Assembly: GCA_040904425.1 (NCBI GenBank)
Contig: JBBDTM010000076.1
Location: forward strand, 21,190 to 85,189
Direction: 5' to 3'
Length of the DNA: 64,000 nucleotides
From: Alkalispirochaeta sp.
Lineage (GTDB): Bacteria > Spirochaetota > Spirochaetia > DSM-27196 > Alkalispirochaetaceae
Positions within the stretch are counted from its first letter, which is position 1. Every line of letters begins with the position of its first letter. The notes under the pieces are model-generated. The model worked only from the letters and a program-made list of their open reading frames with translations, was not told the DNA's origin and did no database searches. Shown here piece by piece: positions 2,699-61,959 of the stretch. The translations under genes were made by a program, and so were the position numbers.

Positions 2699-3417
2699 GA
2701 CGCGTTCCTTCGGTCGCGGTTACCGTGGTGGTGGTGGTGGCGGTAGCAGCGGGTTCGGTGTTTGTTGCCCGGGAACATCTGGCGGGATTCATTTTCAGAG
2801 AGACAACCTCCACCGGATCGGAATCACTCTTCCTCGACGCCCGGGACGTGGCGGAGCTGGAAACGTTCACCGTGGTGCACAAGACGGTCTTTCCTCACGA
2901 CTTTTTCATGGAGGAGACACATTTCTACGCCCTTCTCGATCGCGTTCGTCGCGCCGATGCCCCAGCCCGGGAGGTACTCACACCGGATGAACTGGACCAT
3001 TTTCAGGCGGTGAGTCTCTCGCAGCGTCTGGGCCTGGCCACGGGCCCCGGACAACCGGGGTATGTGGTTGTCACTACTACCCTCCGCTATGGGTATGATC
3101 TCTCTCGCCTCGAGGAACAGATTCGGTCCCGGATAGATCAGACCGCCGCCGATGGTTCCATCGAATCGGCAATCACTATTCCCCCGGCGCACCTGCTCTC
3201 CCAAGAGACGGAGGATCTCTCCCGGGAGGACTATCCGTACAGTCCCGTCTATCTCGACGCCGAGGGATGGCAGGCGGTAGCTACGTTTGTATCTGCGCGA
3301 CTCCTCAGAGGCGATCCCGATGAGGAGACGATCAGCCAGGCGACAGCAACCGGCATCGAACTCCTGGAGACCCTCACAACCCGTCGGTTTGAGGTGCGCG
3401 GTCCCGAAACAGATTGA
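2695..3417 (+). CDS. Membrane-anchored hypothetical protein, probable divergent DUF4230 paralogue
   Basis: ATGA overlap with previous gene; TM anchor; ELETF...YGYDLS...ITIPPAHLLS parallels the upstream gene's AGIDLS...VTLPAPEVL. Confidence 0.55.
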   Translation: MRRVPSVAVTVVVVVAVAAGSVFVAREHLAGFIFRETTSTGSESLFLDARDVAELETFTVVHKTVFPHDFFMEETHFYALLDRVRRADAPAREVLTPDELDHFQAVSLSQRLGLATGPGQPGYVVVTTTLRYGYDLSRLEEQIRSRIDQTAADGSIESAITIPPAHLLSQETEDLSREDYPYSPVYLDAEGWQAVATFVSARLLRGDPDEETISQATATGIELLETLTTRRFEVRGPETD

Positions 3418-3439
3418 ATCCGTCATCTGCATTCTACGG

Positions 3440-3468
3440 TTGCCTCGTTCTATATAATTAATTATCAT
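3440..3468 (+). promoter_or_regulatory. Sigma70-type promoter P1 upstream of trxA, overlapped by an AT-rich Fur/PerR-like box
   Basis: TTGCCT(3440-45)-17 nt-TATCAT(3463-68); ATAAT-TA-ATTAT inverted repeat and ATTATCATTAT within it. Confidence 0.45.
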
Positions 3469-3586
3469 TATATTACGCAATATGAATATGACACACATCG
3501 ATTCAGTGTTTTTCTCCGCGGTACACGATCGTTGTCCGGTGTGGCAGGCACTCCGGCGAGGTTGGGGTAAGAATCCCGCCTAGCAC

Positions 3587-3615
3587 TTGCCTTTCCCACA
3601 TCGCTGTGTTATCTT
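3587..3615 (+). promoter_or_regulatory. Sigma70-type promoter P2 of trxA (extended -10)
   Basis: TTGCCT(3587-92)-17 nt-TATCTT(3610-15), TG at 3607-08; GGGAG SD before ATG 3651. Confidence 0.5.
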
Positions 3616-3650
3616 ATATATATGAATTTTAATATTACGGGAGTATAACA

Positions 3651-4007
3651 ATGACCGAACATCTGACCAAAGACACCTTTTTGAATAAGGTTTTTAACTA
3701 CGAAGAGAACACAGAATGGAAGTATGAAGGCGACAAGCCGGCGATCATCGATTTTTATGCCGTTTGGTGCGGCCCGTGCAAAATGGTCGCGCCCGTGCTG
3801 GAAGAGCTTTCCGAGGAATACAGTGAAAAACTGAAGATCTATAAGATCGATACCGATGCGGAGCAGGAATTGGCCTCGGTCTTCAATATTCAGAGTGTTC
3901 CCTCGATGCTGTTTATCCCGGTTGATGATAAGCCGCAGATGGCGGTGGGAGCACTGCCCAAGGACAGCATTAAACAAGCGATGAAAGATGTCCTCTCAGT
4001 TGAGTAG
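3651..4007 (+). CDS. trxA: Thioredoxin
   Basis: IIDFYAVWCGPCKMVAPVLEEL active site; SVPS cis-Pro loop; 118 aa. Confidence 0.95.
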   Translation: MTEHLTKDTFLNKVFNYEENTEWKYEGDKPAIIDFYAVWCGPCKMVAPVLEELSEEYSEKLKIYKIDTDAEQELASVFNIQSVPSMLFIPVDDKPQMAVGALPKDSIKQAMKDVLSVE

Positions 4008-4029
4008 GGATCCCCCCACATCGCTTGCC

Positions 4030-4063
4030 GGCCGTCTCGAATCTTCGAGACGGCCTTTCTTTT
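4030..4063 (+). terminator. Rho-independent terminator after trxA
   Basis: GGCCGTCTCGAA / TTCGAGACGGCC perfect inverted repeat followed by TTTCTTTT. Confidence 0.85.
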
Positions 4064-4080
4064 GTTCGGGGCACACCAGG

Positions 4081-5328
4081 TTAATCATGCCGGGCTCGGG
4101 TTCGGCGAAACCGAACGGAGGCGATATAGCTCTGTCCCACAGCTTCGATCACGAATGAACCGAATCTGGTTTCCAGCACCTCATCCTTTTCCGGAATCCG
4201 GCCCATACTCCGGATGATAAATCCGGCGATCGTTTGAGCATCATCATCCGTGGGAAAATCTACATCGAGGTGGTCGTTAATCACGTGAATCGGGGCGTCC
4301 CCGGCGATGACATACTCATCGGGTCCAACTGTGAACAGTGGCTGTGCCTCCTCAATCTCGCCCTCATCATAGAGTTCACCGACGAACTCCTCCACCAGAT
4401 CCTCCACAGTGACGATACCCGCGACTCCGCCGTACTCGTCGAGGACGATCGCCATGTTTAACCGCTCTCGGCGCAATCGCGAGAGTACCGAGTGAAAACT
4501 CTTGGACTCCGGGACAAATACCGGTGGCACCACGATCTTGCTGATCGGCATATCGCTGTTTCCATCGGCGACAGCCTTGGCGACATCCTTCACGAGCAGG
4601 ATGCCCACGATCCGCTCCGGTTCATCATCGTAGACCGGTATCCGGGAGAACCCGGACTCCAGAATTGCGGGAAATACCTCCCGCACCGTTCTCCGCTTCT
4701 CCAGGCTGAACACCTTGGTCCGGTGCGTCATGATCGCTCCTACCCGGACCTCACGGGACCGAAAGACGTTCTTCAGGACCGCCGCGTTGAGCTGGTTAAA
4801 CAGGCCCTCGCTGCCTGCGTAGCGGACCAGGTGTTGGAGACCTTCGATCGTGACGCGCGGTCGTTTTGTGCTTCCGGTGAGACGAGTCAGGGCGTTACTG
4901 ATTGTGCGAATCAGCCAGATGAAGGGCGAAAAGATGGTGGAGAAGATCTGCAGAAACCGCGACAGCCCAAGAGTAACGCGCTCATTGTGCATAATGCCGA
5001 TCTGCTTTGGAGTTACCTCCCCGATTATCAACACCAGAATCGTCAGAACCAGCGTGGACGCGGTGAGCCACGTCTCTCCAAAGATGCGAATCGTGAACGC
5101 GGAAACCAGCGCGGAGGCCGCCAGGTTGGCCAAGTTATTACCGATCGTAATGGAGGTCAGGACTACGTCTAGGTGGTCGTAGAGATCGGCCACATGCCGT
5201 CCCCGGACACCCTTCTCTCGTTTCATTCGCTCGATCTGATCCACGGAGAGTGAGGTGAACGCCACCTCGGTGCCGGAAAACGCGCCGGAGATTAGCAGCA
5301 ACACAAAGACAACGGATATTTCGATCAC
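4081..5328 (-). CDS. Hemolysin-family / CorC-HlyC (CNNM + 2xCBS + CorC) Mg2+/Co2+ transporter-like protein
   Basis: FSGTEVAFTSL, ITIGNNLAN, GEVTPKQ (DUF21/CNNM); IMTHRTKV, GFSRIPVY, IVLDEYGGVAGIVTVEDLVEEFVGEL (CBS pair); C-terminal CorC domain. Confidence 0.92.
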   Translation of the reverse strand: MIEISVVFVLLLISGAFSGTEVAFTSLSVDQIERMKREKGVRGRHVADLYDHLDVVLTSITIGNNLANLAASALVSAFTIRIFGETWLTASTLVLTILVLIIGEVTPKQIGIMHNERVTLGLSRFLQIFSTIFSPFIWLIRTISNALTRLTGSTKRPRVTIEGLQHLVRYAGSEGLFNQLNAAVLKNVFRSREVRVGAIMTHRTKVFSLEKRRTVREVFPAILESGFSRIPVYDDEPERIVGILLVKDVAKAVADGNSDMPISKIVVPPVFVPESKSFHSVLSRLRRERLNMAIVLDEYGGVAGIVTVEDLVEEFVGELYDEGEIEEAQPLFTVGPDEYVIAGDAPIHVINDHLDVDFPTDDDAQTIAGFIIRSMGRIPEKDEVLETRFGSFVIEAVGQSYIASVRFRRTRARHD

Positions 5329-5410
5329 GATACCATCATCTCACGATCACGGCGTCGAGGCAATTCTACCCAAATTGCGGGAAAAAACAGCTAGATTAAT
5401 CGTTTGCATA

Positions 5411-5439
5411 TTGCAATTCATACCCAGAGGTGGTAATTT
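5411..5439 (+). promoter_or_regulatory. Sigma70-type promoter pointing into an intergenic region with no plus-strand CDS
   Basis: TTGCAA(5411-16)-17 nt-TAATTT(5434-39) with TG extension (5431-32); TTGCA-TAT-TGCAA inverted repeat at 5404-5416. Confidence 0.5.
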
Positions 5440-5445
5440 TCCGGT

Positions 5446-5558
5446 GCGTCGGAGCATGTCTATGCACCACTCGTATCGTTCCGACATAGTCATCTTTGGT
5501 CTTTTGGTTTTTGAGACCCTCTCAGGTTTTACCTCCTTTCCTGAGAGGGTCTTTCTTT
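5446..5558 (+). ncRNA. Candidate trans-acting small RNA with anti-Shine-Dalgarno loop (undescribed; no family recognised)
   Basis: Upstream promoter; 5' stem 5448-57/5475-85; G/U-rich strand 5493-5512; perfect 13-bp stem 5514-26/5540-52 with loop TTTTACCTCCTTT; U-tail TTTCTTT. Confidence 0.5.
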
Positions 5559-5585
5559 ATCCTCGCACCGGCGCGGGTACCAACA

Positions 5586-6113
5586 CTACTCTCCTCCGCG
5601 GGGAAAGGCAAAGTTGATCCCCGTGGACAGGCGCGTGCTGGTATTGATCCAGTCATTGCCGCCGATCAGCAGATCCTGCTGCGCCTCGAGAAACCAGCTC
5701 ATAATCGGGTGCACTTTCACGCGCATCGCCGCCTTCACGTAGGGCCCCATGAGAAAACGGAACTCCGTCTCCGTGTCGGGATTGAAGTTGAACACCGGAG
5801 ATAACCCGGTTCCGAATAGAAACATCACCCGTTCCTGGGGAAACGTAAAGTTGAGCCCCACGTTTACCGGAATCAGAAAGCTCGGGACGGTATCGCCGTC
5901 ACTATTCTTATCGGTGGTAATACCAAACTCACTTCCGAGATTCAGCTCCAGACCGTCTTGCAGTTCGTGGAGATACGTGGCGGATAGCGCCGTGAGATAG
6001 GTCGTATCGTACCGATAGAAGTTGGTTCCAATACCTGCTGAGAAGGAATTATCGGCGGCGGCGGTGGCGGTGATCACCGTTACCGCACATAGTACAAGAA
6101 ATGCTCTGCGCAT
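5586..6113 (-). CDS. Small exported protein, probable outer-membrane beta-barrel
   Basis: True start ATG 6113 with AAGGAG SD; signal peptide MRRAFLVLCAVTVITATAAA; amphipathic strands ending GINFAF. Confidence 0.65.
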   Translation of the reverse strand: MRRAFLVLCAVTVITATAAADNSFSAGIGTNFYRYDTTYLTALSATYLHELQDGLELNLGSEFGITTDKNSDGDTVPSFLIPVNVGLNFTFPQERVMFLFGTGLSPVFNFNPDTETEFRFLMGPYVKAAMRVKVHPIMSWFLEAQQDLLIGGNDWINTSTRLSTGINFAFPRGGE

Positions 6114-6123
6114 CAACGTCTCC

Positions 6124-7107
6124 TTAGACAAAAACTCCGTATAACTGGTGACCGCACTGGGGACACGCTCCATGATCGGTGTAGTCCCGGACCGGCGGTC
6201 GATGGTCCACACAGACGGTACCACATTGGGGACAGTTCGTCCGATGATAATCTGATTGTCGGCTATTTCCGGCAAAGATAAACGGTGGACGTTCCCGCTT
6301 CGAGAGGTAGTCCAACGTCTCCCGGAGGTCGTCCTCGGTGGTGGCCGGTTCGTCGGCCATTCTCCAGGCGGGGAAGAACCGGCTCAGGTGCCACACCTGT
6401 ACCCCGGCGTCCACAAGCTCCGTTCTCAGCAGGTCGATCGTTTCCCGAGTATGGCGCGAACTCATAAGCATCGTGGTCACTTCCAGGTGTCGTTCCGGTG
6501 CAATGCGGCGAATCGCCTCAAGCACCGGCTCGCTGCGGCCCTTGCACAACTTTCGATAGAACTGCTCGTCTCCCTTAAGGTCAATATTGAACGCATCCAC
6601 CACCGGTATCAGCCGATCCATCGTCTCCTCGGTGAAGAACCCGTTGGTCACCATCACCACCCGGCCGCCGTCGGCACGAATCCGGGGAGCTGAATCAAGA
6701 ATAAAGTCCTGCCACACGGTGGGCTCGCTGTAGGTGTACGCGATGGAAGGGGTGCCGGACCGCTTCCACTGGCGATACACCTCTTCCGCGGACCATTGGG
6801 CTTGAGGCTGGGGAAACCGCTCCGGAAACGCGATGGCCGCGTTCTGACAGAAACTGCACCGAAAATTGCATCCCGCCAACGCCACGGAGAACACGTGAGA
6901 TCCAGGGAGAAAGTGGTACAGCGGCTTTTTTTCGATCGGGTCGATCCCGGCAGACTGAATCTCGCCATAGACGGTTGTCCGAAGCGCACCGCCGTCGTTG
7001 GTGCGGACCCCGCAGAGGCCTACTTCTCCCAGGGCGATCGAGCACCGGTGTGCACAGAAATCACACGTGACGGTTCCCTCCCGGCGGGAACTGCTTTCAC
7101 CGCCCAT
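6124..7107 (-). CDS. amrS: AmmeMemoRadiSam system radical SAM enzyme
   Basis: CDFCAHRC...GLCGVR, IDPIEKKPLYHFLPG, GCNFRCSFCQN (CxxxCxxC), YTYSEPT, C-terminal CPQCG x2. Confidence 0.93.
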   Translation of the reverse strand: MGGESSSRREGTVTCDFCAHRCSIALGEVGLCGVRTNDGGALRTTVYGEIQSAGIDPIEKKPLYHFLPGSHVFSVALAGCNFRCSFCQNAAIAFPERFPQPQAQWSAEEVYRQWKRSGTPSIAYTYSEPTVWQDFILDSAPRIRADGGRVVMVTNGFFTEETMDRLIPVVDAFNIDLKGDEQFYRKLCKGRSEPVLEAIRRIAPERHLEVTTMLMSSRHTRETIDLLRTELVDAGVQVWHLSRFFPAWRMADEPATTEDDLRETLDYLSKRERPPFIFAGNSRQSDYHRTNCPQCGTVCVDHRPPVRDYTDHGACPQCGHQLYGVFV

Positions 7108-8595: not shown

Positions 8596-8638
8596 TGATC
8601 CACCTCCTTTGAGGCGTGCATTCCTATTGTAGGCGCGA

Positions 8639-8675: not shown

Positions 8676-11153
8676 ATGAAGAAATATCCATTCCGCGAGA
8701 TTGAGCCCAAGTGGCAGCGGTACTGGGACGAAAACAAGACGTTCCGGGCGACGGAAGATCCCTCAGTTCCCGCCGACAAGCGGCGCTACGTTCTTGATAT
8801 GTTTCCGTATCCCTCCGCGGCGGGCCTCCATGTGGGACACCCTGAGGGGTACACCGCCACCGACATCTATTGCCGCTATCTACGCATGAATGGATACAAC
8901 GTGCTCCACCCGATGGGGTTTGACAGCTTCGGGTTGCCGGCGGAGAACTATGCGGTGCAGACCGGGACCCATCCCAAGGCGACTACCGAGGCCAACATCG
9001 ATCGCTTTCGGGAGCAGATCAAGAGTCTTGGGTTTTCGTATGACTGGGACCGGGAGGTGAGCACGCACCGCGCGAACTACTATAAGTGGACGCAGTGGAT
9101 CTTCCTGAAACTGTGGGAGCAGGGATTGGCGTATGTAGCGGAAATACCCATGTGGTACTGCGAAGCGCTGGGAACGGTTCTGGCCAACGAAGAGGTGCTG
9201 GCAACGCCGGAAGGACCTCGGAGTGAGCGCGGCAACCACCCGGTGGAGCGCCGTCCCCTGCGGCAATGGATGCTCAAGATCACGGAGTACGCCGACCGTC
9301 TCCTGGAGGGGCTGGACACGCTGGACTGGCCGGATTCGATTAAGGCGATGCAGCGCAACTGGATCGGCCGTTCCGAGGGCGCCAACGTGATCTTCCTGCT
9401 CGCCGAGGACTCCGCGGCCCGGGCCACGGCCGCCGGTCTCGGCCCGGATGAGCAGCACATCGAGGTGTACACCACCCGGCCGGACACGCTCTTCGGGGCG
9501 ACGTACATGGTGATGGCGCCGGAGCACGCCATGGTACCGGCGCTTACCACTACGGAGCAGTCGCAGGCAGTCCGGGAGTACGTGAACGCCACTAAGCTCA
9601 AGAGTGACTTGGAGCGGACCGAGTTATCCAAGGAAAAAACGGGGGTCTTCACCGGCTCCTACGCGATCAACCCCGTGAGCGGCGCAAAGATCCCCATTTG
9701 GATCAGCGACTACATATTGGCCAGCTACGGCACGGGAGCAATCATGGCGGTCCCCGCACACGACGAGCGGGACTGGGAGTTTGCCACCGCCTTTGAGCTG
9801 CCCATCGTGAAAGTGGTGGCGCGCCCGGACGAAACCGATCCCACCGCGCCGCTCACGGAGGCGGCGGCGGAATACGGCGTGGCGGTAAACAGCGGGCAAT
9901 TCGACGGCAAACCCACGGAACAGGTAAAGACCGAGATAATCGCCTGGCTTGAAGAACGAGGTCGCGGGGCCCGGGCGATTAACTACAAGCTGCGGGACTG
10001 GATCTTCAGCCGACAGCGCTACTGGGGCGAGCCGATTCCCCTGGTGGAGTGCGACGGCACCTACTACCCCGTTCCCGAAGACCAACTACCGGTGACCCTT
10101 CCGGAGGTCGAGAGTTACAAGCCCACCGGCACCGGCGAGAGCCCGTTGGCGGCGGTGCCGGAGTGGGTGGGATGCGAGTGTCCCGACGGCAGTGGCCGCA
10201 CCGGCCGCCGCGAGACGAATACGATGCCCCAGTGGGCGGGGAGCTGCTGGTACTACCTGCGCTATCTGGATCCCAGCAATGACCGGGCGTTTGCCGACCT
10301 GAAAAAGATCGAATACTGGATGCCGGTGGATCTGTACGTGGGGGGCGCGGAACACGCGGTTCTTCATCTTCTGTACGCCCGTTTCTGGCACAAGGTGCTC
10401 TACGACATCGGCGTGGTAAACACGGACGAGCCGTTCACGCGCTTGGTAAACCAGGGGATGATTCTGGGAGAGAACGGGGTAAAGATGTCCAAGAGCCTGG
10501 GCAACGTGATTAACCCCGACGACATCATCTCCGAGTTCGGCGCGGACTCCATGCGCGTCTACGAGATGTTTATGGGGCCGTTGCAACAGGAAAAGCCCTG
10601 GTCCACGCAGGGGCTGGTGGGGGTTCACCGCTTCCTGGATCGGGTGTGGCGCCTGACTGATCGGCCCGTTGCCGACGAAGCGCCTGATGAGGAGCTCCTG
10701 CGCACCCTGCACAAGTCCATTAAGAAGGTGGGCGAGGATACCAACAAGCTGGCGTTCAACACCGCCATCAGTCAGATGATGATCCTGGTGAACGAGATCT
10801 ACAAGCGCGATACGCTCTCCAAGGAAGTCTGGCAGGCGCTAATCCGCATGCTTGCACCCTACGCCCCCCATCTGGCGGAGGAGCTCTGGGAGATGCAGGG
10901 GAATCGGTCACCGGTCTCCCTGGCACCGTGGCCGGAGTATCGCGAGGAGCTCACCAAGGACGATCAGGTGGAAGTGGTGCTTCAGGTGAACGGCAAGATT
11001 CGTTCCCGAATGACCGTGGCCGCCGGAACCGATAAGGACGCACTCCAGGAACAGGCGATGCGGGAAGAGCGAATCGCGGAACTCATCGCCGGCAAGGAGG
11101 TGGTCAAGGTGGTCGCCGTTCCGGACAAGCTCGTCAATATGGTGGTGAAGTAA
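8676..11153 (+). CDS. leuS: Leucine--tRNA ligase
   Basis: [14 protein letters not shown] (HIGH), [21 protein letters not shown] editing domain, KMSKS. Confidence 0.98.
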
Positions 11154-38182: not shown

Positions 38183-38252
38183 ATCCAGACCTCCTTTGTC
38201 GAAAGCCGAAGGGTAGCGAAAAGCCCTTCATCTGTCCATTGCGCGTTCGGGC

Positions 38253-61692: not shown

Positions 61693-61959
61693 CTAATCCT
61701 CTTCAAAACGGTTTTCGAATAGGCGTGCCAGACTGTTTACGGCGTCTTCTTCATCCTCTCCATCGGCGGAAATGGTTATGGAGGTATTGTATCCGGCGCC
61801 GAGGGTAATAATGCCCATGATTGACTTGGCGTTGATCGTCTCGTGTTCTTTCTTGAACTCGATTTGTGATGAATACTGCGATGCAGTCTGCACGATAAGT
61901 GCCGCCGGACGCGCGTGAATACCCGCACGATTCCGGACGGTCACCTCCTTTTCAGTCAT
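61693..61959 (-). CDS. ptsH: Phosphocarrier protein HPr
   Basis: GIHARPAA (His15), NAKSIMG (Ser46). Confidence 0.96.
   Translation of the reverse strand: MTEKEVTVRNRAGIHARPAALIVQTASQYSSQIEFKKEHETINAKSIMGIITLGAGYNTSITISADGEDEEDAVNSLARLFENRFEED

Follow-up and report, generated by a model that had tools for sequence, protein, structure and literature searches.

What occupies the 257-bp gap between two minus-strand genes in a 64,000-nt stretch of Alkalispirochaeta sp. DNA (GCA_040904425.1, contig JBBDTM010000076.1; this whole stretch is hereafter the window, whose positions are used throughout)? A preliminary description of this gap (window 5329-5585), made from the sequence alone, had placed in it a candidate for an independent, unannotated small RNA (sRNA) gene on the plus strand, with a terminator loop that copies the 16S rRNA anti-Shine-Dalgarno (anti-SD) tail. 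Our analysis favors that reading, and we assign a probability of about 0.55 to the proposal that ~5446-5560 (+) encodes a ~115-nt trans-acting sRNA of a previously undescribed family, with the anti-SD terminator loop as its seed. The comparison with relatives establishes the element as a real plus-strand gene under RNA-level selection, whose most constrained part is the loop, and the family is real, conserved, and probably expressed. The independent gene as originally proposed is supported by a conservation island from promoter to tail, covariation, G-U pairs, the strand of the T-tail, the lack of an Rfam match, and RNA contigs from homologues.

The comparison covered 17 distinct homologous sequences from Alkalispirochaeta and from soda-lake or aquifer Spirochaetaceae, of which seven, including the window and its relatives L001-L004, L006, and L034, make up group A. 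Conservation in L001-L004 and L006 forms an island that runs from GATTAATC to the T-tail and ends there, and identity to four Alkalispirochaeta-like relatives amounts to 87-92% over the sRNA, 92-94% over the promoter block, and 80-81% over the coding sequence of the adjacent CNNM-type transporter gene. Although RNA bodies cannot be aligned between groups, the loop core ACCUCCUUU is invariant in all homologues (17/17), and loop variation is limited to the 5' U-run (U5 in L006 and L016; a 3-nt insertion in one RNA contig). The terminator stem occurs as AGACCCUCUCAGG, GCCCCCUCAGG, ACCCCUCAGG, and UCCCCCGGG, each with a matching 3' arm. Over the 17 sequences, 89% of its cells are paired and four pairs show double changes (19 cells); none of 500 shuffles reaches the observed covariation score, which collapses when partners are slid by 1-3 columns. 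The 5' stem-loop (SL1) shows compensatory changes within group A as well (G-C to A-U and A-U to G-C). According to the preliminary description, an sRNA gene should have covarying stems in relatives, and a loop that is not conserved would speak against one; both stems show compensatory changes and the loop is conserved.

The same alignments point to the plus strand. Every homologue has a run of T's behind the hairpin on its ACCUCC strand, which measures T6-T8 in groups B and C. The terminator base pair is G-U in 11 of the 16 sequences scored for it, and a U-A pair of SL1 changes to U-G in L004 and L034; such pairs indicate the plus strand, since on the minus strand they would be C-A mismatches. 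Read on the minus strand, the hairpin runs into CAAAAACC and has no U-tail, which argues against its being only the 3' end of the minus-strand amr operon, one of the outcomes that had been named as fatal to an sRNA. No conserved open reading frame (ORF) was found on either strand of the element among the relatives compared, and the conserved core lacks synonymous-type variation; with no coding signal in this core, the constraint acts on the RNA. Helices that covary, an unpaired seed that is kept, and the lack of coding potential together show the RNA-level selection expected of a trans-acting sRNA.

The plus-strand unit at 5393-5560 can be read directly in the gap as initially described, with a promoter-like block, a 5' stem, a G/U tract, a 13-bp stem, and a U-rich tail (see the table). 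Against shuffled sequence, the fold z-score is -5.15 for the plus strand and -3.20 for the minus strand, and the covariance model finds a single copy in the 64-kb window (83.8 bits). Some details of the preliminary description needed correction. Its 5' stem is present (8-9 bp in group A), but with the arms listed in the table and not at 5448-57/5475-85; its perfect 13-bp stem, with 8 G-C pairs, holds without change; its loop motif ACCTCCTTTC (5531-40) is there, but C5540 belongs to the stem as its closing base; and its U-tail follows the hairpin, but is interrupted in the window copy. A G+C-rich stem with a U-run directly behind it on the transcribed strand marks the hairpin as an intrinsic (Rho-independent) terminator. 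A generic terminator scan (4800-6300) misses this hairpin (SL2) because the loop limit of the scan is 8 nt; elsewhere in the window, the loops of clean terminators measure 3-5 nt, compared with 13 nt in SL2, and so unusual a loop is presumably kept for function.

Features of the locus, with positions in the window
Feature	Position	Strand	Basis or remark
Palindrome GATTAATC, perfect	5394-5401		just 5' of the -35 hexamer; invariant in 7/7 group A sequences
Inverted repeat TTGCA-TAT-TGCAA, holding -35-like TTGCAA (5411-5416)	5404-5416	+	sequence reading
Extended -10-like TGgTAATTT	5431-5439	+	TG 5431-5432, TAATTT 5434-5439; 17-nt spacer after TTGCAA
Predicted sRNA, ~115 nt	5446-5560	+	both ends predicted; fold score, consensus structure
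SL1, 5' stem-loop	5448-5485	+	stem 5448-5455 / 5478-5485; apex variable
Single-stranded linker, ~27 nt, with G/U tract CUUUGGUCUUUUGGUUUUU (CTTTGGTCTTTTGGTTTTT as DNA) at 5494-5512	5486-5512	+	consensus structure
SL2, terminator hairpin	5513-5553	+	perfect 13-bp arms 5514-5526 / 5540-5552; G5513-U5553 wobble at base
Terminator loop, 13 nt, UUUUACCUCCUUU (TTTTACCTCCTTT as DNA)	5527-5539	+	core ACCUCCUUU, proposed seed
U-rich tail UUUCUUUA (tail read as TTTCTTTAT / TTTCTTTA)	5553-5560	+	intrinsic terminator; conservation stops here
CNNM/CBS/CorC_HlyC transporter gene (CorB/PaeA/GldE-like)	4081-5328	-	Pfam; NCBIfam GldE, PaeA, and CorC nearest, all below cut-off
175-aa (amino-acid) hypothetical ORF	5586-6113	-	called in public assembly; convergent with sRNA

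Between the two stem-loops, the G/U tract is nearly invariant within group A, where L034 has two substitutions (GGGTTAT for GGTTTTT). The 5' bodies of groups B and C are longer than that of group A and unlike it; in all three groups, UUUUUGAG precedes the terminator, and in groups B and C it ends a U-rich stretch. In group C (L018, L026), another ACCUCCUUU stands single-stranded where group A has the G/U tract, and this duplication supports ACCUCCUUU as the working motif. Because of this second copy in group C, the G/U tract of the window may be a decayed second anti-SD copy, or alternatively a U-rich module for binding a chaperone or another protein, rather than a seed like that of the enterobacterial sRNA GcvB; a GcvB-like role of the tract is conjecture.

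Homologues also provided RNA evidence. L026 (group C) is covered in three aquifer or sediment metatranscriptomes, at 4224-4520 (a 297-nt contig, 100% identity, depth 15.3), 4299-4471, and 4378-4528, and these metatranscriptomes have zero coverage of its CNNM ORF (3188-4223) and of the downstream 4574-5400. Such coverage fits an RNA that accumulates by itself and has its end at the hairpin, and it does not fit DNA contamination. A sigma-70 promoter matching at 11 of 12 positions stands on the RNA strand in both group C loci. An alkali-sediment metatranscriptome contains group-B-like contigs with depths of 18 and 14.4. The former (X20, 547 nt) joins the U-tracts flanking the hairpin at L045:5469-5513 (also the L017:4441-4446 region), skipping exactly 45 nt with a 7-nt microhomology, which could mean that reverse transcriptase slipped across the stable hairpin of a read-through RNA, or that a natural variant lacks the hairpin. 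The latter (714 nt) has the hairpin with the 3-nt insertion in the loop U-run, in a different sequence context.

The element keeps company with the CNNM gene over long evolutionary distances. Metagenome-assembled genomes (MAGs) whose CNNM protein is only 39-47% identical (L012, L013, L015-L018, L023, L026) retain the loop motif, and in them the element is found 200-330 nt past the CNNM stop and shares the strand of CNNM; in L014 and L019 the RNA body is present and the contigs end before the hairpin. CNNM adjoins the element in 13/13 genome loci and in 5/5 testable metagenome loci, in two arrangements, divergent and upstream as in the window versus co-directional and downstream as in the distant MAGs. 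A metagenome pattern scan independent of CNNM returned 14 loci, six of them true instances of a hairpin plus T-tail; none of the other eight, L035 among them, has a hairpin with a T-tail on the ACCUCC strand, and most are ordinary SD sequences of the opposite strand. The covariance model found no element near the CNNM genes of L005, L007-L011, L020-L022, and L029, so that the family is patchy.

Two further observations concern the homologues. At L035:13670-13731, an unrelated metagenome contig (~50% GC) has a hairpin of 10 bp whose loop is identical, GG-TTTTACCTCCTTT-CC; model R1 scores it at 33.8 bits. Its T8 terminator and a TATAAT-like box are on the opposite strand, so that an RNA of L035 would present GAAAGGAGGUAAAA, exactly complementary to the loop of the spirochaetes, with no start codon at SD distance. 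In groups B and C (L012, L013, L015, L017, L018, L026), TGTAAC(C/G)T is conserved ~45-110 nt before the structured part of the RNA. We considered it as a -35 or extracytoplasmic-function (ECF)-type promoter element and rejected this, as there is no consistent -10 and the L026 RNA contigs start upstream; it is more likely part of the RNA.

Upstream of the predicted RNA, the promoter block is best characterized by what is kept. The -35 region reads TTGCAW in group A (TTGTCA in L006), and GTGGTAWTTT is found in 7/7 group A sequences. Of the promoter proposed in the preliminary description (TTGCAA-17-TG.TAATTT), the hexamers and their spacing are as given, but it fails a generic sigma-70 consensus scan (0 sites in 4800-6300), because the -10 hexamer matches the consensus at 3/6 positions (4/6 for the -35). 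We therefore call the block promoter-like on the strength of its conservation and not of a consensus score. A regulon search found GATTAATC and TTGCA-TAT-TGCAA as single copies in the 64-kb window. The former may serve a regulator or belong to an UP-like region, and the two palindromes at 5394-5416 may together form an operator for a regulator common to the sRNA and the divergent CNNM gene.

What the loop might bind follows from its likeness to rRNA. We take ACCUCCUUU to be the typical bacterial 16S rRNA 3' tail (GAUCACCUCCUUUCU); no rRNA gene lies inside the 64-kb window. Nine loop bases and the closing C together give ten that match this typical tail, and the GAUC upstream in the 16S tail is missing. 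The complement AAAGGAGGT occurs at four sites in the window against 0.40 expected, and none of 100 shuffles reaches four. Three of these sites are outside the element itself, two of them true SDs, namely those of amrB/Memo (8602-8610 (-), ATG 8595) and of a TrpX-like substrate-binding protein (SBP) gene (38189-38197, ATG 38182). The exact ribosome-binding site (RBS) complements claimed at the outset are therefore genuine for these two genes, whereas the third match (61943-61951 (-)) is intragenic, within codons 3-6 (E-K-E-V) of an HPr-like (PtsH) ORF with ATG 61959; though no SD, it would be inside the ribosome footprint if paired. The longest Memo/AmrB ORF begins at 8691, but both its SD (8602-8610) and the public gene call of 305 aa put the real start at ATG 8595. 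We also considered the CNNM gene as an anti-SD target and rejected it: its RBS lacks GGAGG in every group, and duplexes between each sRNA and its cognate translation initiation region have z-scores of -0.8 to +1.6 against shuffles, so that direct anti-SD targeting does not account for the CNNM linkage.

In the model that we infer from these sequences, which takes in the transcript ends, action in trans, SD targeting, repression, and a functional tie to the CNNM gene, the exposed loop would pair over up to 13 nt with the SD and A-rich spacer (…AAAGGAGGU…) of selected mRNAs. Such pairing would block 30S binding and thus repress translation. The sequence AAAGGAGGU is enriched in the window (4 vs 0.4 expected) and forms the SD of amrB and of the TrpX-like SBP gene. 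The U-rich tract and the U-tail could serve as a chaperone-binding module or a second seed, and the palindromes overlapping the promoter could bind a regulator. That leaderless mRNAs would be spared is conjecture.

Several results weigh against this model. The promoter fails the generic scan and the U-tail of the window copy is interrupted, as described above. The metatranscriptome contigs are from relatives and not from the organism of the window, and they carry no strand information; one of them, X21, starts 41 nt upstream of the predicted RNA start in L026, so that read-through or processing from the CNNM mRNA is possible. No site in the window pairs beyond 9 nt, every site has at least two mismatches to the 14-nt loop complement, and duplex scans of the whole window, run with the loop and the G/U tract as queries, gave nothing notable except the self-antisense match, nor any convincing C/A-rich target for the tract in the window. 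A bare CCUCC seed would fit very many mRNAs, which leaves specificity unaccounted for, and the U4 and U3 flanking the loop core are conserved beyond the needs of plain SD pairing. Finally, closer CNNM relatives (63-69% identity; L005, L008-L010, L029) have no element in the fetched flanks, by a hairpin scan too.

Such points leave room for other readings. The ten bases never vary despite diverged RNA bodies, which is more than the 5-6 nt that a seed needs, and the linkage to CNNM survives the rearrangement from divergent-upstream to co-directional-downstream. Both features would suit an RNA that mimics the 16S 3' tail, either as a decoy for a factor that reads this tail (candidates being a nuclease of maturation or quality control, for example YbeY, Era, or bS21/bS1) or as a bulk SD competitor, with CNNM co-inherited via ribosome and Mg2+ homeostasis. 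CorC/YbeX is linked to ribosome metabolism in E. coli. Since the CNNM RBS lacks complementarity to the loop, the RNA and CNNM do not form a simple regulator-target pair. However, there is no evidence of a protein partner, the linear, single-stranded duplicate motif of group C fits a base-pairing seed as well or better, and the likeness is confined to the loop, with the upstream GAUC missing. We consider such mimicry unlikely, and its narrower form, a dedicated 16S-tail mimic co-inherited with a CNNM/CorB-type Mg2+ exporter and acting as global SD competitor or decoy, slightly less likely. The RNA could instead be a cis element of the CNNM transcript, namely a 3' untranslated region (3'UTR)/terminator module in groups B and C and a cis-antisense RNA against amr read-through into CNNM in group A. 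In groups B, C, and others, the element follows CNNM on one strand at a distance of 25-330 nt from its stop, with no clean terminator between them by eye, and the X21 contig begins 13 nt inside the end of the CNNM ORF; moreover, the amr operon and CNNM share the minus strand, on which the hairpin has no U-tail, so that complementary read-through RNA is plausible. Nevertheless, in group A the element points away from CNNM and comes with a conserved promoter block of its own, no single cis mechanism suits both arrangements, more than 1 kb of zero coverage separates the element RNA from the 5' part of CNNM, and the CNNM RBS offers no GGAGG for loop pairing, all of which makes a cis element improbable in our view.

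Further from the evidence is the idea that the hairpin is a mere terminator, possibly bidirectional, of the convergent amr operon, with an incidental loop. The hairpin is strong and G+C-rich and follows the stop of ORF 5586-6113 (-) at 33 nt, but the minus strand continues without U's (CAAAAACC), the loop is invariant in 17 sequences while the stem covaries, and neighbors other than CNNM differ in most homologues. The ~70 nt before the hairpin are conserved as well, as is the promoter block, and a loop of 13 nt is atypical next to the 3-5 nt of the clean terminators in the window; we disfavor this explanation as very improbable. We give the least credence to a functional minus strand, with GAAAGGAGGUAAAA as SD or as a CsrA-type GGA loop, or to a coding function, be it of the 48-aa ORF at 5347-5493 (-) or of a plus-strand hydrophobic peptide (…FGLLVF…). 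The sequence AAAGGAGGU is a perfect SD, ATG and GTG alternate at 5493 across relatives, and the plus frame through the G/U tract is open in 5/7 group A sequences. Yet this SD would sit 37 nt from the start of the 48-aa ORF, which has an early stop in L001 and frame-breaking indels and was rejected on these grounds, and the "FGLLVF" frame, likewise rejected, lacks a conserved start; indels in L002 and L006 shift it, it is not the same from group to group, and it continues through the terminator. The conserved core without synonymous-site variation, the T-tails, and the G-U pairs are a further difficulty for these proposals, the latter two indicating the plus strand.

The genes on either side of the predicted sRNA gene have their own points of interest. 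The window derives from a sediment metagenome, and the nearest proteins to its CNNM transporter, whose gene is divergent from the sRNA in the window, come from Alkalispirochaeta MAGs (91-94% amino-acid identity). The start of this gene is GTG, and in place of a GGAGG SD a conserved GATCGTGAGATGAT block stands before it (window 5329-5345, -), and distant CNNM homologues have CATGAGAGACC-type sequences before the start. In group B, a -10-like CATAGTA box stands ~10 nt before the ATG, and because of this short distance the group B CNNM mRNA may have a short leader or none. On the other side, ORF 5586-6113 ends the amrB-amrA-amrS cluster (Memo, AMMECR1, radical SAM); it has no Pfam or NCBIfam match, and its C-terminus (…PRGSTLPFP…) is kept in relatives. 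Rfam, at the gathering threshold over the whole 64 kb, reports no tRNA, rRNA, riboswitch, or known sRNA.

To our knowledge, the regulatory RNAs of free-living Spirochaetaceae are essentially uncharted. An anti-SD sRNA with conserved loops and free-floating stems would be a phylum-distant, independent case that suggests convergent evolution of the cuckoo/CcsR and RsaE design discussed below. The CNNM/CorC-type linkage, kept across a rearrangement, hints that both genes answer to one regulatory signal, possibly Mg2+ or ionic stress, and a 16S-tail mimic, if that is what the RNA is, would in alkaliphilic spirochaetes couple translation initiation with Mg2+ and ribosome homeostasis. The weight of the finding is tempered by how common new sRNA families are and by a function that is deduced only; the sharply defined motif and the clear comparative support make it directly testable in cultured Alkalispirochaeta.

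How does the element compare with known systems? Searches of Rfam 15 at the gathering threshold gave 0 matches in the window and in 7 homologous loci, so the match to a known cis-element that could have overturned the preliminary description is not there. On 5250-5700 at E up to 10, the one match was a minus-strand chance similarity to a miRNA precursor (19.7 bits versus a threshold of 70). We found no described spirochaete sRNA of the anti-SD terminator-loop type in the literature.

The cuckoo/CcsR sRNAs carry an anti-SD-like, C/U-rich motif, CCUCCUCCC, in each of 2-4 adjacent hairpin loops; the motif is the sole conserved sequence, the stems vary by compensation, and homologues are hard to align and have a conserved neighborhood (PMC4615179). 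Anti-SD sRNA families show motif duplication, and the RSs0680a-d cluster is co-transcribed with the upstream hypothetical gene RSP_6037 (PMC4615179). Our element resembles this group from Alphaproteobacteria (RSs0680, SmelC397/NfeR1-type) in its conserved anti-SD loop, covarying stems, possible extra copy, and conserved neighbor. It differs in having the motif ACCUCCUUU and no CCUCCUCCC, a single motif-bearing hairpin, and usually one motif copy (two in group C), located in the terminator loop itself, as well as in its host (Spirochaetaceae) and its neighbor, a CNNM/CorC-type gene and not DUF1127; it is thus not a member of cuckoo/CcsR.

RsaE/RoxS (Firmicutes) and AbcR1/2 (Rhizobiales) repress translation through unpaired, C-rich motifs that base-pair with SD regions, and the targets of AbcR are mRNAs of ABC substrate-binding proteins; one of the exact SD matches in the window is that of the TrpX-like SBP gene. 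Unlike these sRNAs, with which it has no Rfam covariance-model similarity, the spirochaete seed is a 9-10-nt stretch of the 16S tail and not a short CCC(C). RepG of Helicobacter pylori pairs a C/U-rich terminator loop with a G-repeat in the tlpB leader and thus shares the terminator loop as the proposed pairing site, whereas the proposed partner here is the SD and the two RNAs are not homologous. The conserved, unpaired G/U-rich tract before the terminator recalls the enterobacterial R1 seed of GcvB, but there is no Rfam GcvB match, and the tract is conserved in group A only and merely U-rich in the other groups. As to icaR-type 3'UTR anti-SD elements (S. aureus), the hairpin of groups B and C likewise stands at the 3' end of the CNNM unit; unlike them, the CNNM RBS has no complementary SD, and the element of the window is divergent and upstream. 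Overall, the element represents an sRNA family that is new to the databases searched and, by its proposed anti-SD mechanism, belongs to a known kind.

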